The notes under the pieces were generated by a model that was given only the letters and a program-made list of their open reading frames with translations, did not search any database and was not told the DNA's origin. A stretch of 64,000 nucleotides of DNA, taken from positions 3,872,001-3,936,000 of the forward strand of contig OY970325.1 of NCBI GenBank assembly GCA_963717145.1, written 5' to 3'. Positions 10,218 through 61,391 of the stretch are shown here, one piece after another (the stretch's first letter is position 1; the number at the start of each line of letters is the position of its first letter). The position numbers and the translations under genes are program-made. The stretch is from an uncultured Armatimonadetes bacterium (GTDB lineage: Bacteria > Armatimonadota > UBA5829 > DTJY01).

Positions 10218-11366
10218 ATGACCAGTATAGAACAGACCGGCAAGACGATCGATGAGGCAACTCAGAAGGCCCTAAAGCAGCTCGGAGTCATCGAAGACGA
10301 CGTGGATGTCGAGATCCTCGAGGAAGGCGCGAGGGGGTTCCTCGGACTCGGACAGTCTCCGGCAAAGGTGAGAGTGTCTTTGAAGCAGAGACCCAGGTTC
10401 GAAGCGGCTCCTGAGCCTCCGCAGCGCGAAAGGCGTCCCAGGCAGAGGCAGGCTCCGAGAGAGGACCGCCCGTCTCGTGAGCAGCAGCCTCCAAGGGAAG
10501 AGCGCCCCGCTCGGGAGCAGGCTCCGAGGCAAGAGCGTCCGCCCAGGCAGCGCCCTCCGCGGGAGGAGCGTCCCGCGCGCGAACCGCAGCCCCCCCGAGA
10601 GCAGCAGGCTCCCAGGGAAGAGCGTCCGCCGAGGCAGCGCCCTCCGCGGCAAGAGAGACCCGCCCGAGAGCCTCAGGCCCCCAGGGAGGAGCAGCCCGTC
10701 CGAGAGCAGCAGGCTCCCAGGGAAGAGCGTCCGCCCAGGCAGCGCCCTCCGAGGCAGAGGCCCGCGCCGAAGGACCGCCCGGAGCCTCAGCCGGCCGCTC
10801 CCGCACCCGAACCGATAAGTGCGGCGCCGGTCGCGCCGGTTGCGGCCGTTCCGACGGCTCTTCCGCCGCCGCCCCTCGCACCGGTTGCAGCGATTCCGAT
10901 GGAAGAGATCTTGAAGCAAGCCGCCGAGATCAGCCGCGAAGCTCTGCAGCACATCGCCGACGGGATCGAAGACGGTGCCAAGGCAAGTGTCAAAAGCATG
11001 GAGGACAACCAGGTCGTGCTCGAGATCCTATCCGGCGAACCGGCGACCATAATCGGCAAGCATGGACAGACGATCGACGCGATCCAGTACCTCGTGGGAG
11101 TCATGACCAACAAGCGGCTTCCGGAGAAGGTCCGGGTGGTAGTCGACGTTGAGGGATATCGCAGTAAGCGCGAGGAGGCCCTGACAAACCAGGCGCACTT
11201 CCTTGCCTCGAAAGTCAAAGAGACCGGGGAAGAGGCGGTGCTCGAACCGCTTCATGCGAACGAGCGCCGGATCATACACAGCGCGCTCGCCGACGATCCC
11301 GATGTCTACACTTACAGCGAAGGTGAAGAGCCCGACCGCCATATAGTCATCTCACCGAAGAAATGA
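10218..11366 (+). CDS. jag: Jag/EloR (KhpB) RNA-binding protein with a long R/E/Q/P repeat linker
   Basis: Jag_N (GKTIDEA..EILEEG..GFLGLG), KH (IIGKHGQTIDAIQYL), R3H (ERRIIH..SEGEEPDRHIVI). Confidence 0.95.
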   Translation: MTSIEQTGKTIDEATQKALKQLGVIEDDVDVEILEEGARGFLGLGQSPAKVRVSLKQRPRFEAAPEPPQRERRPRQRQAPREDRPSREQQPPREERPAREQAPRQERPPRQRPPREERPAREPQPPREQQAPREERPPRQRPPRQERPAREPQAPREEQPVREQQAPREERPPRQRPPRQRPAPKDRPEPQPAAPAPEPISAAPVAPVAAVPTALPPPPLAPVAAIPMEEILKQAAEISREALQHIADGIEDGAKASVKSMEDNQVVLEILSGEPATIIGKHGQTIDAIQYLVGVMTNKRLPEKVRVVVDVEGYRSKREEALTNQAHFLASKVKETGEEAVLEPLHANERRIIHSALADDPDVYTYSEGEEPDRHIVISPKK

Positions 11367-11371
11367 TCGAA

Positions 11372-11449
11372 TGGGAGCATGGGAGTATGGGGGTATGGGA
11401 GAAGTACTCCCACACTCCCATACTCCCACACCCCCATACTCCATTCCCC
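11372..11449. repeat. Inverted octamer tandem array, (TGGGAGTA)n ... (TACTCCCA)n
   Basis: TGGGAGCATGGGAGTATGGGGGTATGGGAG followed by TACTCCCACACTCCCATACTCCCACACCCCCATACTCCA; fills the jag-mnmE spacer. Confidence 0.9.
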
Positions 11450-11450
11450 C

Positions 11451-13079
11451 ATGTTCATCGAGGAGACGATCTCAGCCATAGCCACACCGATCGGTGAGGG
11501 CGGAATCTCTGTCATTCGGATCAGCGGGCCGAATGCGATGCAGGTGGCTGCGCGAGTCTTCCAGACGGCTTCCGGGATGCCGCTCGATGCCTATCCCACC
11601 AATTCGGCTCACTATGGCGCCGTCGTCGGCCCCGAATACCGCGAGCGGATCGACGACGGCATCCTCACCATCTTCCGGGCCCCACACAGCTACACCGGCG
11701 AGGACTCCGTCGAGATAAGTTGTCACGGCGGCATGGTCCCCTCGCGCAACGTCCTCGAGGCGACTCTCCGCGCCGGCGCGCGTCTCGCCGAACCCGGCGA
11801 GTTTACCAAGCGCGCATTCCTCAACGGCCGGCTCGACCTCGTCCAGGCCGAGGCCGTTCTCGACATCATTCGCGCCCGGACCGACGAGTCGCTTCGGGTC
11901 GCCAGGCGTCAGATGGAGGGCGCTCTCTCCGCCCAGATCCGCGCGCTGAGGGAGGAACTGCTCGGCGTGATGGCCGGCATCGAGGCGGCGATCGACTTCC
12001 CGGAAGAGGTGGCCGAGGTGCCCTTCGAGTCGGTCGCCGCATCGCTCCACGACGCGATCAGCCACGTCTCCGGCCTGCTCGACACCGTCTCGTGCGGCAA
12101 GATCTATCGCGAGGGCATCCAGACAGTCATCGCCGGGCGGACGAATGTCGGGAAGTCGAGCCTCCTGAACGCGCTCGTCCGGGAGAGCCGCGCGATCGTG
12201 ACCCCGATCCCCGGCACGACTCGCGACCTGATCGAGGAGACGATCAACATCCGAGGCATTCCCGTGCGGACGATCGATACCGCCGGCATCAGGGCGACCT
12301 CCAGCGTCGTCGAGCAAGCCGGCATCGACCGCACGCGACGCACGATCGAGCAGGCCGACCTGATCCTCGCGATGCTCGACGCCTCGAAAGGGCTCTCCAA
12401 GGCCGAGAAGGACCTCCTTCTGAGCCTGTCACCCGGCTCGCCACCGGAAATGGAATCACACAGGCACAGACAACAAGGAGAAGATCACGGCCAATCCGGC
12501 ATTCCTCCGTGCCCTCCGTGCCTCCGTGGTTCAAACTCCGAGAGTGTCCCTGTTCCCCCCTCTCCCACTCCCGCCCTCCCCCCCTCGCCTTTGCCCCCTC
12601 TCCCCCTCTCCCCATCCTCCGCTCAGTGGCCGCCGCGCATCCGAGGTTCCGCATCCCGGCTGATCGTCGTGGTCAACAAGATCGACCTCCTGCGCCAGGA
12701 CGATGCCGAGGCGCTGCTCGAGAAGATCCGCGGATGGATCGGGAAGAACATCGCCGGCAACCCGCCCGTGATCGGGACCGCCGCGCCGTCGAACGAAGGG
12801 ATCAAGGAGCTTGAGGACCTCATCGTCGAGACTGTCATGTCCGGGGGAGTCGCCTGCGCCGAGGGAGCGGTCGTCTCGAACGTCCGGCACAGCCGCGCGC
12901 TCGAGGAAGCCCGGCTCTCGCTCCAGCACTGCCTCCGAACCGTCGCCTCGAACCTCCCGCTCGACTTCATCAGCATCGACCTCCGTGCCGCCGTCGACAC
13001 CCTCGGCCGCATCACCGGCGAGACCGCCACCGAAGACGTCATCGACCGCATCTTCTCCGACTTCTGCATCGGGAAGTAG
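11451..13079 (+). CDS. mnmE: tRNA modification GTPase MnmE with a ~75-aa insertion in the G domain
   Basis: TISAIATP.GEGGI.VIRISG, GEFTKRAFLNGRLDL, GRTNVGKSSLLN, PGTTRD, DTAG, NKID, FSDFCIGK. Confidence 0.97.
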   Translation: MFIEETISAIATPIGEGGISVIRISGPNAMQVAARVFQTASGMPLDAYPTNSAHYGAVVGPEYRERIDDGILTIFRAPHSYTGEDSVEISCHGGMVPSRNVLEATLRAGARLAEPGEFTKRAFLNGRLDLVQAEAVLDIIRARTDESLRVARRQMEGALSAQIRALREELLGVMAGIEAAIDFPEEVAEVPFESVAASLHDAISHVSGLLDTVSCGKIYREGIQTVIAGRTNVGKSSLLNALVRESRAIVTPIPGTTRDLIEETINIRGIPVRTIDTAGIRATSSVVEQAGIDRTRRTIEQADLILAMLDASKGLSKAEKDLLLSLSPGSPPEMESHRHRQQGEDHGQSGIPPCPPCLRGSNSESVPVPPSPTPALPPSPLPPLPLSPSSAQWPPRIRGSASRLIVVVNKIDLLRQDDAEALLEKIRGWIGKNIAGNPPVIGTAAPSNEGIKELEDLIVETVMSGGVACAEGAVVSNVRHSRALEEARLSLQHCLRTVASNLPLDFISIDLRAAVDTLGRITGETATEDVIDRIFSDFCIGK

Positions 13080-20232: not shown

Positions 20233-21570
20233 TTACCCCAGAACCGCCTTCACGACCGCGCAGATGTCCCCGACCACCGAGCGGAGTTCGTCCATGTCGG
20301 GACCCTCGGCCATGACGCGGATGAGCTTCTCCGTGCCCGATGCCCGCACGAAGACCCGTCCCTTGCCCTTGAGCCGTTCCTCGCCCGCATGGATCGCCGC
20401 CTGGACTTCCGCGTTCTGCTCCCAGCCGGTCCGATCGCGGACAGGGACGCTTTCGAGCAACTGCGGGAACTCCTCCATCTGTCCCGCAAGCTCCGAGAGC
20501 GACTTGCCGCTCTCGATCATCACGTTCAGCACCTGAAGCGCGGTGATCATCCCGTCGCCGGTCTTCGTGTACTCGCCGAAGATCAGGTGCCCCGACTTCT
20601 CGCCGCCGAGCATCGCCCCTCGACGCCTCATCTCCTCCGAGACATATCGGTCGCCGACCGCCGCGCGCGCCAACTCGATCCCCGCGTTCTTGAGCGCCAG
20701 TTCGAGGCCGATGTTGCTCATCACCGTGCCGACGACCACGTTCCCCGGCAGACGTCCCTGCTCGGCCATGTGGAGGCCGCAGAACGCCATCACGTGATCG
20801 CCGTCGACCAGGTTGCCCTCCGCGTCGGAGAGAATCGCGCGGTCGGCGTCGCCGTCGAACGAGAAGCCGATCGTCGCGTCCGTCCCGGCGACCAGCTTGC
20901 GGATCCGGTCGGTATGGAGAGCGCCCCCATCACGGTTGATGTTCTCACCATCCGGCTGGGCATTGATGACTGCCACCGCCGCGCCAAGTTCTGCGAAGAG
21001 GTGAGGGGCTATGTTGGACGCCGAGCCGTTCGCGCAGTCGATCGCGATGCTGATCCCGTCGAGCCGATGAGGGAACGTCCGCTTCAGATGCTCGATGTAG
21101 CGGTCCACGAGGAAACTCGCGCGGTACATGCGGCCGACGCCCGGGCCGTCGGGGAACGGAAGCTCGTCGAACCGCCCGACTTGCGCCTCGATCTCGGCCT
21201 CGATGTCATCGGATAGTTTGTGGCCGTCCGGGCCGAAAAACTTGATCCCATTGTCGCGCATCGGATTATGGGAGGCCGAGATGACCACGCCTGCATCGGC
21301 GTCGATCAGCCTGGCGAGGTATGCGACCGCCGGGGTGGGGATGACACCGACGAGGTGGATATCGACGCCAAGCGCGCAGACTCCCGCCGCGAGCGCGCTC
21401 TCCAGCACGTCGCCCGAGATGCGAGGGTCGCGACCGACGAGGATCTTCGCGCCCTCATGTTTGCTGCGCAGGACGTATGCCGCCGCCGCGCCAAGTCGAA
21501 GCGCCAGGTTCGCGCTCAACTCGGTATTCGCCACTCCGCGCACGCCGTCCGTTCCAAAGAGTCGTTGCAT
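20233..21570 (-). CDS. glmM: Phosphoglucosamine mutase
   Basis: LFGTDGVRG, ISASHNP, DGDADR, GGEKSGH, RASGTEKLIRVMAE. Confidence 0.97.
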   Translation of the reverse strand: MQRLFGTDGVRGVANTELSANLALRLGAAAAYVLRSKHEGAKILVGRDPRISGDVLESALAAGVCALGVDIHLVGVIPTPAVAYLARLIDADAGVVISASHNPMRDNGIKFFGPDGHKLSDDIEAEIEAQVGRFDELPFPDGPGVGRMYRASFLVDRYIEHLKRTFPHRLDGISIAIDCANGSASNIAPHLFAELGAAVAVINAQPDGENINRDGGALHTDRIRKLVAGTDATIGFSFDGDADRAILSDAEGNLVDGDHVMAFCGLHMAEQGRLPGNVVVGTVMSNIGLELALKNAGIELARAAVGDRYVSEEMRRRGAMLGGEKSGHLIFGEYTKTGDGMITALQVLNVMIESGKSLSELAGQMEEFPQLLESVPVRDRTGWEQNAEVQAAIHAGEERLKGKGRVFVRASGTEKLIRVMAEGPDMDELRSVVGDICAVVKAVLG

Positions 21571-21587
21571 TCGGGACTCCGATCAGG

Positions 21588-21629
21588 GGAATGAAAAATG
21601 CAAAATGAAAAGTTCAAAAGTCAAAATGG
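21588..21629. repeat. Heptamer tandem array (AAAATGC-like) 3' of the four-helix-bundle gene
   Basis: GGAATGAAAAATGCAAAATGAAAAGTTCAAAAGTCAAAATG. Confidence 0.9.
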
Positions 21630-21649
21630 CGGACGCGGAGGTCCGATGG

Positions 21650-22018
21650 TTAGCGAGATGGCGCGTTGGATTTCGCCGTAATGATCGATTGCGCGACAAT
21701 CTTGCATAGTTGCTCAGCTTCGGAGAGCGCCGATCTGCAATCCACTCCGGACTTGAGTTCCGCGTGCTTGATCAATCTTAGCCAGAATCTCGATTCCCTG
21801 AGTTCCTTGAGGGCGATCCGCAGCTTGTGAATGAAGTCGGCCCGACTCTCTGCCGCACAAGCTTCCTCGTAATTGGCAGCGGAGGATGTGCCGGATCTCA
21901 GAAGCTGTCCGCCAACATGTCTACCGGCGGTAGTTCTGGGGAGAGCGTTCACAACCCGCACGACCTCCACCGCAAAATCGAACAGCCTATCTTCTAGCTT
22001 AGGCACGTCCTCGCGCAT
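21650..22018 (-). CDS. Four helix bundle protein (TIGR02436 / 23S IVS protein / Avd-like)
   Basis: LEDRLFDFA..V..LP..GQLLRSGTSSAANYEEA..AESRADFIHKLRIALKELRESRFWLRLI. Confidence 0.92.
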   Translation of the reverse strand: MREDVPKLEDRLFDFAVEVVRVVNALPRTTAGRHVGGQLLRSGTSSAANYEEACAAESRADFIHKLRIALKELRESRFWLRLIKHAELKSGVDCRSALSEAEQLCKIVAQSIITAKSNAPSR

Positions 22019-22045
22019 AGTTCACCTAGCCTCTGAGACTGATCT

Positions 22046-22090
22046 GCAATTTTGCATTTTGCACTTTACACTTTGCATTTTTCATTTTCC
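22046..22090. repeat. Heptamer tandem array (GCATTTT-like), inverted relative to 21588-21629
   Basis: GCAATTTTGCATTTTGCACTTTACACTTTGCATTTTTCATTTTCC, abutting the cdaR stop codon. Confidence 0.9.
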
Positions 22091-23047
22091 CTATCCGCCC
22101 TCTGCCACGCCGATGCGGACCGTGATGATGGCGACTCGTCCATTCGCGAGCGATGATCCCGGAGGTGCGATGAGTTGAACGCGCTGGGAGAATGTCTTCG
22201 TATGAGGGCCGAGTGCAAGCGGCTCCGTCGATACCGTGCTGATCTCCATCAGCCGTTCCGGGCGGCCGTTCAGCGTGACCGACTGCGGTTTCACCTCGAT
22301 GCCGACGACCTTGTAGGGGAACGCGGGCCGGCCCGCGATGTTCGGGCTGACGAAGACCACCTTGCTGACCGGCGCTCGTTCGAGTTCAAGACGCACCCGG
22401 GCATTCTGCGCGCTGATCGTGACGCCGCCGACCTCCTGCCCCGCTTCGTCAACCGCCTTCATGGGCAGTTCGGCGTCTATCACGCCTCGATCGGACTTGG
22501 TCGCCGGATCGATGGTGACAACGACTCGGCTGACCTTCCGGACCTGTTCCGCCTTGCCGGACACGTTCACGGTACCGGGCGAGATCACCGGGGCGCTGAA
22601 CCTGAAACCCACCGGCGGCGATGATGTGAACTCAGTCTCGACCTTCGCCGACTTCCGCGCTGTTCTCTCGATGTCGATCACTACCTGGGCCGGAGACGGA
22701 GCGGTGGAGACGAGGCCGGTGTAGCCCTCGGGGAGTTTCGCAATCACCGGCAGCCGATAGTGACCCTCGCGCTTCTGGTTCAGGAAGACGTTCGCGGTCA
22801 CCGAATCCGGCTCGGCGACTATCGTGTCGATGTATTCCTTGGGGCCTTCGAGCGTGACCTTGACGAGCTGCGGCTTCGATGTGATCACCAGGCCGCCGCC
22901 CAGGTTGCGCATCGTCACGGGAAGCGACAGTTCACGAGTCACCCGTGCGGCTTGGCGTCCCTGGTCGACGTACTGGTTTACGTACGCCCAGACCAGTATG
23001 GCTATCAGCAGCGAGAGCAGTTTGTAGCCGATGTTATGCTTGATCAT
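22091..23047 (-). CDS. cdaR: CdaR/YbbR family regulator
   Basis: N-terminal KLLSLLIAILVWAYV helix followed by YbbR-like repeats; ATGA overlap with cdaA. Confidence 0.88.
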   Translation of the reverse strand: MIKHNIGYKLLSLLIAILVWAYVNQYVDQGRQAARVTRELSLPVTMRNLGGGLVITSKPQLVKVTLEGPKEYIDTIVAEPDSVTANVFLNQKREGHYRLPVIAKLPEGYTGLVSTAPSPAQVVIDIERTARKSAKVETEFTSSPPVGFRFSAPVISPGTVNVSGKAEQVRKVSRVVVTIDPATKSDRGVIDAELPMKAVDEAGQEVGGVTISAQNARVRLELERAPVSKVVFVSPNIAGRPAFPYKVVGIEVKPQSVTLNGRPERLMEISTVSTEPLALGPHTKTFSQRVQLIAPPGSSLANGRVAIITVRIGVAEGG

Positions 23048-23937
23048 TTCGTTCTCTGGCCGAGACCATCGCTTCCGGTCCAAACCTTCGATAAAGCGGT
23101 CGAGACTCTGCGGCGCAGATGCGATCTGGCATCCCCATCAGGGCCGGCCTGGAACAGGCTGAGCAGTTTCGCTTTCGTCTGCTCGGGGGTCAGCCCTCGC
23201 AGCAGAAGGCCCTCGGTGGAGATGGAAATCGTGCCGGTCTCCTCGGATACCACCAGCACTACCGCGTCGCTCTGTTCAGTGACGCCGACAGCGGCCTTAT
23301 GCCTGGTATGGATCATCGTGCCGATCCTCGGGCTGTCACTGAGTGGGAGGATGCACCCCGCGGCTACGATCCGGTCGCCTCGTACGATCACCGCGCCGTC
23401 GTGCAGAGGGCTACCGGGGTGGAAGATGGTTCTCAGCAACTCGGACGATACTTCGGCGTCGATCGCTTTCCCGGTGGCCAGTATTGTGTCGAGGCCGACC
23501 TCGCGCTCGACGACGATCAGGATGCCGGTCTGCGATCTCGACGCATCGGTGGCGACCTGGGTCAGCTCTTCCACGAGGTTGTTGATGTCCTCGCGGCCAA
23601 GCATGACGAAGCCGTCGCCGAGGAACTTCAGGCGTCCGACCTCCTCGAGCGCGTGCCTCAACTCCGGGTAAAACAAGATGACGAGAGCGACAGGGCCGAG
23701 TGGGAGGAATACCTGCAGCAGCCAGTTGAGCGCCTGCAGGTTGAGCCATTTGCTGATGACCACGGCGAGGGAGAAGATGCCCAGTCCCCAGAGGATCTGC
23801 CAGGCCCTCGTCCCTTTGACGAGCATCATGAGCTTGTAGGTCACGACGGTGACGACGAGTACGTCCGCGACCGTCGTCAGCAGACTCACGTAGTTCACAT
23901 CGGCGAGTTGCGAAAACCAGCCAATAATGGCTCCCAT
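23044..23937 (-). CDS. cdaA: Diadenylate cyclase CdaA
   Basis: Three TM helices, PELRHALEEVG, SPLHDGAV, GCILPL, TRHKAAVG, VSEETG. Confidence 0.95.
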   Translation of the reverse strand: MGAIIGWFSQLADVNYVSLLTTVADVLVVTVVTYKLMMLVKGTRAWQILWGLGIFSLAVVISKWLNLQALNWLLQVFLPLGPVALVILFYPELRHALEEVGRLKFLGDGFVMLGREDINNLVEELTQVATDASRSQTGILIVVEREVGLDTILATGKAIDAEVSSELLRTIFHPGSPLHDGAVIVRGDRIVAAGCILPLSDSPRIGTMIHTRHKAAVGVTEQSDAVVLVVSEETGTISISTEGLLLRGLTPEQTKAKLLSLFQAGPDGDARSHLRRRVSTALSKVWTGSDGLGQRTK

Positions 23938-24028
23938 CCTGCTGCTCCCAATAGTGAAATTCGGTGGAATCTCACCGGGAAAGTATATCATAGGCGCTGT
24001 GCATAATCAACACGAGTCGCAAACCTCC

Positions 24029-25149: not shown

Positions 25150-25235
25150 GCCTCTGGTCCCCCCGCACAAAGCTTCACGCCTCCTGCCGTCATGTTGACG
25201 AGCGGACGGTGAAAGTAAGGCAAGGCGTTTTCCCC

Positions 25236-28200
25236 ATGGGCAAGTTGGCGTTCGCGGTACTGCTATTCCTGCTAACCTGTTCTGTCCTCCTCGCGGGCGG
25301 GGGGAGACACAACGTGTTGGTCGTGGTGAATGACAACAGCCCTGTGTCGAAGGCGATCGGCGAGTATTACCGCGCAGCACGAAACATCCCTCCGGCCAAT
25401 GTCTGCCACATCACGTGCTCCACCGACGAGTACAACAGCGACAACTTCGAGAGCGAGATCCTCTATCCTATCGAGAGTTACCTGACTGCGCACGGCCTCG
25501 TGAACCAGATTCAGTATATCGTGCTGACCAAAGGCATCCCACTGAAGGTTTCTTCCACCGGCAACTCCGTCGACAGCAGCCTGTCCCTCGCGTTCCAGAG
25601 GTGGAGCGATGGGGTTAGCCCCTGCATCGAGCGTGCCGACAACCCGTATGTTGCCGTGGACCGAGACTTCGGCGCGTTCAGGGATTCGAGCGCCAACAGG
25701 ATCCCCTGGAGCACTCTTACGCCGCTCCGGGACATTGCTCCCAGAGGCGATGGCGCTATCTTTGCTGTTGGAGGCCGTTTCATCGCCCGGAGCACCAATG
25801 GAGTGGACTGGGAGGAGATGCCTGAGGCCGGCTGTTCCGAGGTGCTGACGCCCCTGACCAGGGCCTATTTCCTCAACGCCACGACAGGTTGGGCGGTTGG
25901 AGAACGGGACACCATCCTGAGGACGGTTGACGGTGGCTCGACCTGGCAGAGAGTCCGAGGTGGGCAGTCATCGGACGAGACCACGCTGTCGGCGGTCTGG
26001 TTCACTTCTGCGACGAACGGGTGGGTTGTCGGGGAAGATCAGTATGGCGAGCCGTTGGCCCTCCATAGCACAGACGGAGGTGTCACCTGGGCTCCGCAGT
26101 CGATCGGCGCCACAAACCCACTGCAAGACGTGTTCTTCACGGACAGCCTGAACGGCTGGGTGGTCGGCGATGCGGATATGCTCCGGTCGACCGATGGCGG
26201 AGAGACTTGGGTATCCGCACGAAACGGCGCGCCGGAGGGAATGCTCAGCAGAGTCTTCTTCGCCGACGCCGACAATGGCTGGGCGACCGGCGCTGAGACT
26301 CTGCTGTGCCGCACCGTAGATGGAGGCGACACGTGGGTGAGGCAGCAGATCCCGGGGCTGCTCGAGCAGACACTGATGGACTGCCATTTCATCGACAGCA
26401 ACACCGGATGGATCGTCACCAACTGCGCTTACGACGAGGGGGAGACCTCGAGCGGGCGGCTTCTGCGCACCACGGATGGCGGCGTCACCTGGACCACTCT
26501 TCAGTCCGGTGAGGTCGATCGGCAGGCCGTCTACTTTGCGGATTCACAGACGGGTTGGTATGTTCAGGCAAGGTCCGACGAAGAACCCTGGAACAACGTC
26601 ATCTACAGGTCGACGGACGGCGGAGCCGGCAGGACAAGGGTTTTTGCCAACCATCCGTGGACGGTGAAGCTCATGTACCTTGTGTGCCGCCTCGATTCCT
26701 ATGAGACCGACACCAGAGACGGCGGAAACGGCGTCCCGGATGACATCGAGGACATGATCGCCGGCTCACTCGCGCCTGATCCGACCGGGCAGTTCGTCAT
26801 CGATGCATCCACAGGCAACTACCAGAGCGGCAATCTCTCCCTGGCAGATACTGCGAGTCGGCTTCTCAGTCGTGGTCTGAACGTGCTCTTCGATCAGAGC
26901 TGGAAGTTCGTGAGTGGCGCTTACCCGGGCATCGGCCAGGTTGCCGGATACGCCGGTTGGGGGAGCAACGACGGGGGGTCATTGTGGAGTTCCGAGTGGG
27001 GCAAACCGAACTTCGCCTGGAAGCCGGGTTCGATCGCCATGTGCTACGTGTCGTCCGACGGCCGATCGTTCAGTAAGCCGCCCGCGTATCTCCGTTGCTC
27101 ATCGAATTCCATACTTGACGAAGGCCGGTCTTTCAGTAATTCGAATGTCATCCAGCTATACAACGTCTATTCCGGCTGGGTTGCGAAACTCCATGATCCG
27201 AGCGGCGACGTCGTTTCCAGCGCGTCCTTCGCGAGCGGCGGGATCGAACTCCCCTGCGCCGGTCCTGCGGAAGGGTACATCCAGGTCTACCGGCCTGATG
27301 GGGTCGCTCCGATATGTGGCGGCAGATACCCCGCCTCCGGCACTGCGACGCTGGTGGGAGGAAGGGCGTACAGATACTCGACCGGGCAGTCCCTCATAGC
27401 GGACTACATCTCTGAAGGCTGTTCCGCCGCCGTGGGCTCCGTGGCCGAGCCGGGGTTCAGGTGCACATACCCGGAACTGACCTTCCCCAGGTACGTGGAC
27501 GGCTATATGTGGGCGGAAAGCGCCTGGATGGGCATAACGTCCACGCCGTGGATGTATCTCGCTGTCGGCGATCCGCTCATGGCGCCCTACGCGACTCCTC
27601 CTTCGGTGAGCATCACCTCGCCCGGACTCGACGGCCAGGTGCTCAACGGCACAGTGGAAGTGGAGGTGACGGCCGCGGATGCGCAGGGGATCGCCAGGGT
27701 CGAGCTATGGGTGGATGACAGGTATCACAGTGCCGTCGCCGGCCCCGGACCGACATTCAGCCTGCCGCTCGACACGGAGTCTCTTTCCGATGGCCCGCAT
27801 ACCCTGGAGGCGATCGCATACGAGGCGGGCAAGGTCGCCACTCAGGCTTACGCGCTGAGGTCGGTCATCACGGCGAATGCGGATTCGGTGACGGACCTGT
27901 TCAGCGTGCCCGATGGAATTCCCGTGCACTTGCAGGCCGCCACTGTCAGCAGAGTGTTTCCATCCACCGGCTACATCTACGTCCAGGAGGGTCAGGCCTC
28001 AGGCATCAGAGTAGTCTCCGGCGAGCTGCCCGCGGAGGGCGAAGTAGTGAGTGTCGTCGGGGTGCTCCACACCGGCGCAGGGGCCGAAAGATACATCGAG
28101 ACCGATACCCTCACTGTCACGTCCGGCGGCGGATCGATCCCGCGCGCGGTGGGCATGGGGAACGGCTCACTCGGAGGGAATTCCCTGGGCAGCGCATCGG

Positions 28201-28472
28201 GCATTTGCAGACGGGCGAAGCCGACCGGTCTCTACAATATCGGCCTCCTCGCGGAGACCTGGGGCAGGATCACCAGCGTCGGGACGGACTACTTCTACAT
28301 GAGTGACGGCAGCGACGCCGGCGGCGTCAAGGTGACATGCTATGGATTCGCCCCGCCCTACGCCATCGGCGACTACGTCAGGACGACCGGCATCAGCTCG
28401 ATGGACGGCGGATTCCGCGCCCTCCTCGTCAACAAGTCCGCAGATGTGCGCCTGCTTTCCCCGAGCCCCTAG
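25236..28472 (+). CDS. Secreted multidomain protein: TIGR03790-like domain with inserted YCF48/BNR propeller, Ig-like domain and shared C-terminal domain
   Basis: Signal peptide; NVLVVVN.NS..S.AIGEYY..AR.IP, YIVLTKGIP, YLVCRLD, GWGSND, VGDPL; repeated T.DGG.TW Asp-boxes; PSVSITSP. Confidence 0.75.
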   Translation: MGKLAFAVLLFLLTCSVLLAGGGRHNVLVVVNDNSPVSKAIGEYYRAARNIPPANVCHITCSTDEYNSDNFESEILYPIESYLTAHGLVNQIQYIVLTKGIPLKVSSTGNSVDSSLSLAFQRWSDGVSPCIERADNPYVAVDRDFGAFRDSSANRIPWSTLTPLRDIAPRGDGAIFAVGGRFIARSTNGVDWEEMPEAGCSEVLTPLTRAYFLNATTGWAVGERDTILRTVDGGSTWQRVRGGQSSDETTLSAVWFTSATNGWVVGEDQYGEPLALHSTDGGVTWAPQSIGATNPLQDVFFTDSLNGWVVGDADMLRSTDGGETWVSARNGAPEGMLSRVFFADADNGWATGAETLLCRTVDGGDTWVRQQIPGLLEQTLMDCHFIDSNTGWIVTNCAYDEGETSSGRLLRTTDGGVTWTTLQSGEVDRQAVYFADSQTGWYVQARSDEEPWNNVIYRSTDGGAGRTRVFANHPWTVKLMYLVCRLDSYETDTRDGGNGVPDDIEDMIAGSLAPDPTGQFVIDASTGNYQSGNLSLADTASRLLSRGLNVLFDQSWKFVSGAYPGIGQVAGYAGWGSNDGGSLWSSEWGKPNFAWKPGSIAMCYVSSDGRSFSKPPAYLRCSSNSILDEGRSFSNSNVIQLYNVYSGWVAKLHDPSGDVVSSASFASGGIELPCAGPAEGYIQVYRPDGVAPICGGRYPASGTATLVGGRAYRYSTGQSLIADYISEGCSAAVGSVAEPGFRCTYPELTFPRYVDGYMWAESAWMGITSTPWMYLAVGDPLMAPYATPPSVSITSPGLDGQVLNGTVEVEVTAADAQGIARVELWVDDRYHSAVAGPGPTFSLPLDTESLSDGPHTLEAIAYEAGKVATQAYALRSVITANADSVTDLFSVPDGIPVHLQAATVSRVFPSTGYIYVQEGQASGIRVVSGELPAEGEVVSVVGVLHTGAGAERYIETDTLTVTSGGGSIPRAVGMGNGSLGGNSLGSASGICRRAKPTGLYNIGLLAETWGRITSVGTDYFYMSDGSDAGGVKVTCYGFAPPYAIGDYVRTTGISSMDGGFRALLVNKSADVRLLSPSP

Positions 28473-43788: not shown

Positions 43789-44564
43789 AGCCGCAGGTAT
43801 GCTTCTTCCACCGTATCCGCCGTCGTCTCGACCGTGCGGGCGTCGATCACGCGGATATCCGGTCGGGCGAACCCGTTCGGTACGGTGATCCGCTCGACCA
43901 TCTCCTTGCGGAAGGTCACCGGCCGCTCGATCGGCATCGGCCCGATCGAGCCGATCCGCCCGATCGCCTCGCGAGTCTTCTCCTCGATCAGCTTGTGCGC
44001 CACATCGAGCGAGAGCATCCTCGCGCCCTGGCACGACATCCCGACCTTCACCTGGCAGGTGACGACGCCCGGGATCCAGTCGGAGGCCTCCGCGCACGCC
44101 TTGTCGTCGCCGGAGACCATGATCACCGGCTTCCCGAAGTCGGATGCGACCCCGGCGTCGAGCCCGATCTCGCCGACCTTGCGCCCGTTGAGCCAGTAGT
44201 TCTGCACCGTCTTGGACGACATCGTGTGCTCCAGGAGTGCGCCACGAGTGCCCGCCATGGCATGGTAGCCGAGCAGGATGAGCGCGTCGCACTCATCGAT
44301 CCCCGGCAGCCGTCTCGGAGTCGAGCCCTGGATGACCTCCGCGCGCGGGTCGAGTTCGGCGGTGATGAAGTGGTTGCCCGACCCGTGACCGTCGCGCACG
44401 ATGACGCCGTCAGCGCCCGCGTCGAAGCAGGCTCGGATGCAGGCGTTCGCGTCCCAGGTATAGTAGCGCCGTGCATCCTGATAGAGCTTCCCCTCGGACA
44501 GCACGTGATCGCTGCCCGATATCCCGCTGATGCCTTCCATGTCTACGAAAATGAGTATCTTCAC
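43785..44564 (-). CDS. M55 family metallopeptidase (D-aminopeptidase DppA-like)
   Basis: VDMEGISG, DGHGSG, LGYHAMAG, LEHT, GEIG, SGDD. Confidence 0.92.
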   Translation of the reverse strand: MKILIFVDMEGISGISGSDHVLSEGKLYQDARRYYTWDANACIRACFDAGADGVIVRDGHGSGNHFITAELDPRAEVIQGSTPRRLPGIDECDALILLGYHAMAGTRGALLEHTMSSKTVQNYWLNGRKVGEIGLDAGVASDFGKPVIMVSGDDKACAEASDWIPGVVTCQVKVGMSCQGARMLSLDVAHKLIEEKTREAIGRIGSIGPMPIERPVTFRKEMVERITVPNGFARPDIRVIDARTVETTADTVEEAYLRL

Positions 44565-58691: not shown

Positions 58692-58753
58692 GGAGTATGG
58701 GGGTGTGGGAGTATGGGCGATCCGGACACTCCCATACTCCCACACCCTCGCAC
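58692..58753. repeat. Inverted octamer array (TGGGAGTA type)
   Basis: GGAGTATGGGGGTGTGGGAGTATGGG ... CACTCCCATACTCCCACACCC. Confidence 0.85.
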
Positions 58754-60336: not shown

Positions 60337-61353
60337 ATGTCCACTTGCCCGAAATGCACAGCGCCCATACCGCCCGACGCCAAGTTCTGCACCGAGTGCG
60401 GGACGCCCATGCCTGCGGCTGAACCGCCGGAGACCGTCGATCCGTGCCTCGATGAGGCGCATACCGCCCTCGCCGCCGCCAATCTCCTGAAGCTGAGAGG
60501 CGAGTGGCAGGGCGCCATCGACAAATGCATGCTCGTCCTCTCCCTGGATGAGGATGATGCGGCCGCTTACTCGCTCCTCGGCGACATCTATCGGGATCAG
60601 GGGCAGTTCGGCGAGGCGATGCATTGGTACAGGCTGGCTCTCGATCTCAATCCCGACAGCCCCGCCAACAAGACAAAGCTCGAACAGACCATGGCCAGTT
60701 CCCTGACGGAACGGGCGCCGAAACGCGACAGGAAGGCGGAGGCGATCCTGACCGCCAAACGAGTGCTCGCCGAATCGGCGCTGGCGATAGGGCTACTGCT
60801 CATCATAACCACCATCTGGCCGATGATATTCCGTCCGAAGATCGGCTCTGAGACGCCTCCTGACCGGCAGTCCGAGGTGCCGCAGAGGTACCGGCTGCCG
60901 ATGATCACCGACAACGGAGAAGCCACGCAGACTCCCGCGAATCCGGCCGCCGAAGTGTCCATGTCGAAGCGCGAGGACGCGCTCTTCCAGGCGCTCAACG
61001 CGTCGCCGGTATTGATACAGCGTAATCTGCTGGTACGAAGCATTCTGATAGATCCGAGAAACCGTTCGGCGGTGATCACTGTGCTCTGCCCTCAGACTGT
61101 TCAGGGGACCGCAACCGAAGCTCTCGTTCGCAGCAGCCTGATCGTGCTGCGAGAGGCGTGCTTCAAGGAGCACGGCCTCGATCGCTTCACCGTGAGGGCC
61201 ATGTACGATGGATCGGGCAGCAGGCCGGCGGAGATCCGGTTCGTGGCCGATGCCGAGCGCAACTCGGTGCTGTCGATCGGCCCTGAGTCCGCCGAGTACG
61301 CTCAGCTCGTAGGGGTGCTGCAGAACCCGTGGTGGGCCGCGGGGGACAAATAG
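60337..61353 (+). CDS. Zinc-ribbon plus TPR membrane protein
   Basis: CPKC..FCTECG, TPR helices (AYSLLGDIY..A..WY..AL.LNP), one TM helix; TTGACG-N17-TAATCT at 60277-60305. Confidence 0.8.
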   Translation: MSTCPKCTAPIPPDAKFCTECGTPMPAAEPPETVDPCLDEAHTALAAANLLKLRGEWQGAIDKCMLVLSLDEDDAAAYSLLGDIYRDQGQFGEAMHWYRLALDLNPDSPANKTKLEQTMASSLTERAPKRDRKAEAILTAKRVLAESALAIGLLLIITTIWPMIFRPKIGSETPPDRQSEVPQRYRLPMITDNGEATQTPANPAAEVSMSKREDALFQALNASPVLIQRNLLVRSILIDPRNRSAVITVLCPQTVQGTATEALVRSSLIVLREACFKEHGLDRFTVRAMYDGSGSRPAEIRFVADAERNSVLSIGPESAEYAQLVGVLQNPWWAAGDK

Positions 61354-61354
61354 T

Positions 61355-61391
61355 GTGGGAGTATGGGAGTATGGGAGTATCGGAGTGTGGA
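61355..61391. repeat. Half (unpaired) octamer array (TGGGAGTA)n
   Basis: TGTGGGAGTATGGGAGTATGGGAGTATCGGAGTGTGGAGG, running into the RBS of the next gene. Confidence 0.85.

Follow-up and report, generated by a model that had tools for sequence, protein, structure and literature searches.

The described systems closest to the locus analysed here are the open reading frame (ORF)-bearing intervening sequences (IVSs) of 23S rRNA genes, as in Coxiella burnetii and Leptospira, the RAYT genes with their REP/BIME (REPIN) repeats, the Avd proteins of diversity-generating retroelements (DGRs), and the intergenic heptamer arrays of Beggiatoaceae; the STRR of cyanobacteria are another class of dispersed heptamer repeats. 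The Coxiella IVS is described as an RNase III-cleaved insert with a 28-bp terminal stem and three tandem heptamers upstream of an S23p ORF, which is itself reported as decaying (PMC4990558). RAYTs are flanked by inverted REPs that coevolve with them (PMC2817692). PF05635 proteins resemble Avd, which forms a pentameric barrel and, in the DGR complex, binds both RNA and the reverse transcriptase (PMC10053308; 10.1101/2023.10.23.563531). The TAACTGA arrays of Beggiatoaceae are intergenic, have spread without an evident mechanism, and have been proposed to play a regulatory role; they are almost only direct repeats, with one inverted set, and a term search of the main text of that report gave no hit for 23S, S23, or intervening sequences (PMC4679880). 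In the literature covered, which took in few subscription journals, we found no general description of a heptamer-armed cassette outside rRNA.

The locus lies in a window of 64,000 nt (the whole stretch of DNA analysed) from an Armatimonadetes genome that is available as one contig and 98% complete (the source genome, G000). Matches to TIGR00159, the YbbR domain, TIGR01455, and TIGR02436/PF05635 bore out the original prediction of a cdaA-cdaR-glmM setting with an enclosed 122-amino-acid ORF (Table 1). The two arms around this ORF, each 53 nt long, with 79% complementarity and a spacing of 409 nt, are the region's best inverted repeat, and carry period-7 arrays that read on the + strand as AATGCAA-type units on the glmM side (5.6 copies) and as ATTTTGC on the cdaR side (5.7 copies). 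All genes of the cassette region are on the - strand, and the mRNA therefore has an AAAATGC arm after the cdaR stop and a GCATTTT arm before the glmM ribosome binding site (RBS), the arrangement originally predicted with unit letters taken from the + strand. The cassette reached an arm score of 53, against a maximum of 25 among 124 control windows with slightly different flank lengths. Its region folded at z = -3.26, with 0 of 100 shuffles equally good, and the likely glmM RBS (GGAG) remained mostly unpaired in the predicted fold, the stem ending just before it. Because the cassette follows the cdaR stop and does not occupy the RBS of the next gene, it would affect the mRNA, if at all, only as a by-product. 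The insertion is probably incidental for the cdaA-cdaR-glmM operon. By eye, we saw no transposase in the ORF list around the cassette and no target duplication at it, as had been noted at the outset, and no transposase was seen within the 260-nt flanks of the four PF05635 matches of the genome. The locus (L002) lies outside the 16S and 23S rRNA genes, which rules out an rRNA IVS by location, and the search of Rfam returned no match in it; its flanks are cdaR and glmM.

Table 1. Positions of the cassette, its flanking genes, and related features (window numbering unless a contig is named)
Feature	Position	Strand	Basis or remark
Upstream arm (mRNA order)	22043..22095	-	About 5.7 AAAATGC-type heptamers (array 22049-22088); stem overlaps the cdaR stop codon
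Four-helix-bundle gene, 122 aa, TIGR02436/PF05635, S23p/Avd-like fold	21650..22018	-	ORF list and profile matches
Downstream arm (mRNA order)	21581..21633	-	About 5.6 GCATTTT-type heptamers (array 21590-21628); complementary to the upstream arm
Likely glmM RBS, GGAG	21577..21580	-	Just outside the stem; unpaired probabilities 0.51-0.98
cdaR (YbbR-domain protein), upstream flank	22091..23083	-	ORF list and profile match
glmM (phosphoglucosamine mutase), downstream flank	20233..21570	-	TIGR01455
cdaA (diadenylate cyclase)	23044..23991	-	TIGR00159
Gene-less hairpin, 8-mer GAGTATGG family	11371..11442	.	4 nt past the upstream stop; related 8-mer hairpin at the junction in the sister-genus genome
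GxxExxY genes with inverted flanks	G000:C1:2092697-2093173, 4778438-4778779, 2416458-2416802		Arm scores

At this site the cassette is not an rRNA IVS, and it is neither a RAYT nor a DGR; in build it resembles an IVS, in behaviour a REPIN system. It shares with ORF-bearing 23S rRNA IVSs the protein family, a terminal inverted repeat with the ORF in its loop, and the presence of heptamers, but it lies between protein genes, both of its arms are heptamer arrays, and it lacks the G·U signature of an RNA stem. Furthermore, whereas the Coxiella ORF is decaying, the four-helix protein is under purifying selection at the two cassette sites common to the source genome and its closest relative, a sister-genus genome with 85% GlmM identity (G001; pN/pS 0.062/0.615 and 0.144/0.641), and gene-less copies abound in the source genome. 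With RAYT/REPIN systems it has in common a small gene within covarying inverted repeats, many gene-less copies and, in the source genome, post-stop position, strand symmetry, and shared junctions. Unlike RAYTs, the protein is an all-helical four-helix bundle rather than an IS200-like (Y1) tyrosine transposase, Y1_Tnp matches lying elsewhere in the genome; the arms are tandem 7-mers rather than palindromic REPs with a GTAG tag, and the empty copies do not track the presence of the gene. As in Beggiatoaceae, the repeats are intergenic tandem 7-mers, and TAACTGA-like units occur as empty hairpins in the source genome and as the arms of one sister-genus cassette.

Profile searches assigned the 122-aa protein to TIGR02436 (E 3e-25; 88.4 bits against a cut-off of 24) and to PF05635 (E 5e-16; 59.3 bits against a cut-off of 33.8), which was its sole Pfam match, and returned no transposase family. 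GC3 of the gene is 0.63, compared with 0.84 for glmM and 0.79 for cdaR. The predicted structure consists of four long helices (pLDDT 92) and finds its best fold matches in 2RLD and 2GSC, whereas Avd (4DWL) ranks 12th; it has the same fold (TM 0.72) at 15% identity, in agreement with the expected kinship to Avd. Judging from the five chains of the 2RLD structure and from print on 2GSC and Avd, the cassette protein is predicted to form an Avd-like homopentamer. Residues Q38, E52, E72, and E75 are invariant across 37 aligned sequences, including the three other paralogues of the genome; we know of no catalytic function for this protein or its fold. Unlike Avd genes of DGRs, the cassette gene has no reverse transcriptase beside it or elsewhere in the source genome, where the absence of a PF00078 match rules out a DGR accessory gene.

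Inverted arms were the rule around four-helix genes, as the original prediction had anticipated for paralogues. All four PF05635 genes of the source genome have them, each with its own unit (GGGTTAT, AAAATGC, TGATGGT, and TTCGAAA; scores 80, 53, 48, and 55, respectively). Scores of at least 30 were obtained at 13 of 15 four-helix loci in the sister-genus genome, at 17 of 25 testable loci from elsewhere in the class (26 fetched loci were used, and one with short flanks was left out), and at 55 of the 67 homologues that could be tested, which came from many phyla, compared with 0 of 124 shifted control windows. The homologues were drawn from the closest 80 in GTDB genomes, 67 of which had enough flank, and the arm period was 7 in 53 of the 55 that were armed. 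Arm similarity increased with protein identity (Mantel rho 0.52, reached by 0 of 999 permutations, kin not being independent). In a quick tree of 56 rows, an AACATCG-type clade of 30 rows spans Verrucomicrobiota, Kiritimatiellota, Thermodesulfobacteriota, and Myxococcota (SH-aLRT 98), and the nearest rows to the query mostly carry A-rich units resembling AAAATGC. Since the Mantel test and the tree both rest on non-independent kin, they show that gene and arms travel together and do not imply that the protein reads its unit. A distant protein that is only 38% identical over 71 aa also has AAAATGC arms, which argues against a strict unit-protein code. Two AAAATGC-type cassettes of relative G024 (L050 and L063, on G024:C94) are 2 kb apart in an otherwise distant protein clade, one of them with an internal stop. 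The heptamer-armed four-helix cassette is real and widespread.

Comparison of 17 glmM loci from relatives placed cdaR directly upstream in nine, and none of the 17, hence none of the nine syntenic ones, has the four-helix gene. At the sister-genus junction, a GTAG-type REP-like hairpin takes the place of the cassette (by eye). Two studies yielded contigs that match the window at 87-92% identity and connect either glmM, arm, and gene or gene, arm, and cdaR, none covering the entire cassette. Absence from all nine syntenic relatives and presence in the 87-92% identical ones indicate a lineage-specific insertion that was thereafter kept in place. Junctions of cdaR and glmM without the gene, which the original prediction had proposed to look for, were found in these relatives, and the opposite pattern, a gene syntenic between cdaR and glmM across the clade without repeats, was not seen. 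Excision at this site was considered and rejected: among the joints listed, those linking the arms via 12-24 other letters have sides of only ∼30 nt and read as empty hairpins from other loci. The flanking genes of 13 of the 15 sister-genus cassettes are adjacent in the source genome. The 13 matched junctions there comprise five that are tight and empty (gaps of -4, -4, -4, 11, and 14 nt), two with the same cassette and unit, and six with another hairpin (by eye). Within the window, the counterparts of a REP-like hairpin (2507-2585) and of a 4-nt gene overlap (44561-44564) are full four-helix cassettes in the sister-genus genome. Cassettes thus come and go at orthologous junctions, and the idea of a minimal mobile cassette delimited by inverted arrays of short period gains support from the four armed paralogues, the nine gene-less syntenic relatives, and this turnover.

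The source genome further contains 154 similarly built hairpins without a gene. Inverted tandem 6-9-mers make up their arms, stems have a median of 33 bp, and the diverse loops a median of 14 nt; a second detector again returned 154, and none when applied to 1.5 Mb of shuffled sequence. The largest families are ATGGTTG (54 empty copies and one full cassette), GAGTATGG (40), TCGTAC (11), and AAATTCG (9). The 8-mer GAGTATGG and the TCGTAC families have no full partner cassette in this genome, a TCGTAC cassette being present in the sister-genus genome. The AAAATGC unit of the cdaR-glmM cassette has one empty hairpin only, at a junction where the sister-genus genome holds a full cassette of another unit. 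Cognate gene-less copies therefore range from 54 (ATGGTTG) through 9 (AAATTCG) to 1 (AAAATGC), next to orphan families. CCGG occurs near the centre of 53 of the 154 hairpins, in several unit families and over a background of 18%, which suggests shared masters. An AAATTCG hairpin is nested inside CACGGAGG arms at G000:C1:978946-979078, and heptamer arms at a sister-genus junction (L204; matching source-genome position 418139) surround a GTAG REP doublet, both suggesting insertion into older hairpins. More 7-8-nt arrays, some without a detected partner arm, lie in the window at 1057-1139, 12504-12616, 58692-58717, and 61352-61390. Other repeats of the window are a 42-nt tandem repeat (2121-2241; 2.9 copies, 97% matches), a 36/87-nt repeat region (10448-10757), and the repeated segments of a 1087-aa predicted secreted protein (25209-28472, - strand).

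Hairpin placement was assessed with home-made calls of 4379 genes, among which the cassette gene itself is missing. They put 104 hairpins in co-directional gaps, 18 in convergent and 14 in divergent gaps, and 18 inside called genes. Depletion from divergent gaps is weak (14/136 versus 472/2773) and depends on these calls. Among the co-directional hairpins, 81 of 104 begin at most 17 nt past the upstream stop, whereas an own-gap null gave a mean of 55 and a maximum of 66 in 1000 draws; in roomy gaps (at least 60 free bases) the figure is 22 of 41, versus 4.7 expected. Flank matches at the 154 hairpins gave no sign of target duplication (mean 3.93 nt versus 3.97 nt shuffled; at least 6 nt in 11 versus 9.3), and this agreement with the shuffled null, along with the lack of a transposase family matching the protein, ruled out a DDE-type IS or MITE. 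Across 385 orthologous junctions in 1.2 Mb of the sister-genus genome (∼4.5 Mb in total), a stem is present in the source genome at 29 of 37 junctions with a tandem hairpin in the sister genus and at 125 of 348 others (odds ratio 6.5, or 4.1 when restricted to roomy co-directional gaps), as scored by a classifier that gives some false positives in GC-rich flanks and reads wider flanks in the source genome. Ten junctions have a tandem hairpin in both genomes, six with unrelated and four with related units (by eye). Such reuse may reflect tolerance of insertions rather than targeting. Hairpin density is 29 per Mb in the source genome and 18 per Mb in the sister-genus genome; six other relatives, which have 4-13 four-helix genes, together yielded only 1 hairpin in 600 kb sampled, and seven relatives without the gene together yielded 0 in 600 kb sampled. 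The nominal correlation of density with four-helix gene number over 15 genomes (Spearman 0.54, p 0.04) rests on the source genome, the sister-genus genome, and one hairpin in G009, and is therefore not counted as support. The bloom of hairpins is confined to two genera, no bloom being seen in the other relatives, and is not tied to the presence of the gene.

If selection acts on a stem as part of the transcript, G·U pairs should be tolerated more often than A·C pairs on the sense strand. Their numbers were 152 versus 152 in the 122 empty hairpins whose sense strand is known and 68 versus 84 in the 55 full cassettes, compared with 17 versus 0 in tRNA acceptor stems and 6 versus 1 in terminator-like stems. 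The wobble pairs likewise showed no leading/lagging strand bias (198 versus 178, p 0.33), with an origin guessed from weak GC skew. Given that neutral decay of the arms would also produce a 1:1 ratio, this symmetry weakens the case for RNA-level selection and neither excludes it nor proves a DNA-level function. The original prediction had spoken of a mobile or RNA-processing cassette; its first half is supported, and the counts lend no support to the second half at these mRNA sites. Of 151 GTAG REP doublets in co-directional gaps of the source genome, 110 begin at most 17 nt past the stop, and their G·U and A·C pairs number 34 and 36. Since they share post-stop position and strand symmetry, the heptamer hairpins behave like REP doublets.

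On balance, we give about an even chance to the reading that the cassette is a RAYT/REPIN-like DNA element in its protein-carrying form, with a protein of pentamer fold that binds the arms of its cassette. The four-helix protein, as a predicted Avd-like pentamer, would likely bind these arrays when they form a single-stranded DNA hairpin or a cruciform, and would help to place the cassette and its gene-less miniatures just behind stop codons. Strands might be cut through its invariant Gln/Glu residues or by a nuclease borrowed from the host or another element. Landing in a 23S rRNA gene would lead to survival as an IVS, given that the stem can be removed by RNase III, as in Coxiella (PMC4990558); rRNA IVSs would then be one landing site of the cassette, seen in one relative (G023). 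Counting against the DNA-element reading are the lack of target duplication, a bloom unlinked to gene presence, the GAGTATGG and TCGTAC families with no full partner in the source genome, the single empty copy of the cassette's own unit, the AAAATGC arms around a distant protein, and the long persistence of cassettes, which stay at the site in 87-92% identical relatives and occupy two sites common to the source and sister-genus genomes.

Other small genes of the source genome are built in a similar manner. Its three GxxExxY genes, whose protein is unrelated, have inverted flanks (scores 37, 39, and 47), two of them with clear 8-9-nt tandem units, and at least five of its seven Y1-transposase matches have REP-type flanks (by eye). 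RAYT-like Y1 genes lie at G000:C1:242007, 827258, 3783917, 4479024, and 5159789, each with its own REP family. Small genes of three kinds thus sit between inverted arms in this genome, each kind accompanied by similarly built gene-less hairpins; by analogy, the heptamer hairpins would have the four-helix protein as their factor. The same genes provide for an unlikely alternative, in which RAYT, a GxxExxY nuclease, or host recombination spreads the hairpins and the four-helix protein either rides inside or binds the arrays to tune the flanking operon genes. The armed GxxExxY genes and several RAYT-like genes could serve as its agents; a lineage-specific bloom untied to four-helix gene count, the persistence of cassettes under purifying selection, and the regulatory role proposed for intergenic heptamer arrays in Beggiatoaceae (PMC4679880) are also in its favour. 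However, a tandem-array hairpin lies within 1.5 kb of none of the seven Y1 matches, which led us to reject RAYT as the direct partner of the heptamer hairpins; genomes G004 and G024 have armed four-helix cassettes and no GxxExxY match; and each four-helix gene keeps its own unit across phyla, as a plain passenger need not.

We regard as improbable a cassette acting at the RNA level, with arms that pair in the transcript, a loop excised by RNase III or the Avd-like protein, and spread via an RNA intermediate. Consistently with such a cassette, the stem is stable (-44.3 kcal/mol for the sense arm duplex, and the z score given above), the median stem is ∼33 bp for periods 6-8 (its lower end being set by the detector), hairpin position is tied to stop codons, and the source genome encodes RNase III, the enzyme that cuts the Coxiella IVS with its heptamers upstream of the ORF (PMC4990558). 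Avd, moreover, binds RNA in the DGR complex (10.1101/2023.10.23.563531). However, the antisense duplex is equally stable (-46.1 kcal/mol), the sense strand has no G·U excess, and DNA-level REP doublets have the post-stop position as well. Retromobility through a resident reverse transcriptase was rejected, given that PF00078, present in 7 of 31 genomes, has no match in the source or the sister-genus genome. An RNA-functional stem may nevertheless be found in relative G023, where a PF05635 ORF lies inside both matched 23S rRNA genes (L051 and L062, at about 1430-1870) and the insert has a 19-bp stem with three G·U and no A·C pairs (by eye; a single case). We take the insert site to be the tip of helix 68, apparently not helix 45 as in Coxiella. 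In this single case, the contrast between a G·U-bearing rRNA stem and the symmetric stems of mRNA sites is the one expected if rRNA is a landing site that needs an RNA-functional stem. Lastly, it is very improbable that the empty hairpins are former full cassettes whose gene was deleted between the arms, with no independently moving miniatures: diverse and short loops, the sole empty AAAATGC hairpin at a junction with a full sister-genus cassette (of another unit), and own arms that match slightly better than those of other copies (a comparison biased by detection) are in keeping with such relics, but the 54 ATGGTTG copies beside one full cassette would require dozens of past full insertions of one unit, the central CCGG suggests shared masters, and the movement of full cassettes would still need explaining.

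Strand symmetry and the comparison with REP doublets point to DNA first. In the source genome, only a few full members, this cassette included, stand beside ∼150 gene-less hairpins, and the cassette is likely a so far unrecognised kind of mobile DNA that also has miniature copies. A bolder version of the preferred DNA-element reading, which we hold only tentatively and on the doubtful side, is that of a widespread bacterial class of mobile DNA with an Avd-like pentamer as its only protein and no transposase fold, which would recognise its own arrays, cut or anneal strands via the invariant Gln/Glu residues, seed itself and its miniatures behind stop codons, and be the source of ORF-bearing rRNA IVSs and dispersed 7-base repeats, possibly also of the Avd of DGRs. 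If true, this would offer a testable agent for the spread of ORF-bearing rRNA IVSs and an origin for dispersed heptamer repeats, a function for a very common but functionally uncharacterised protein family, and a mobilising protein without a known transposase fold.
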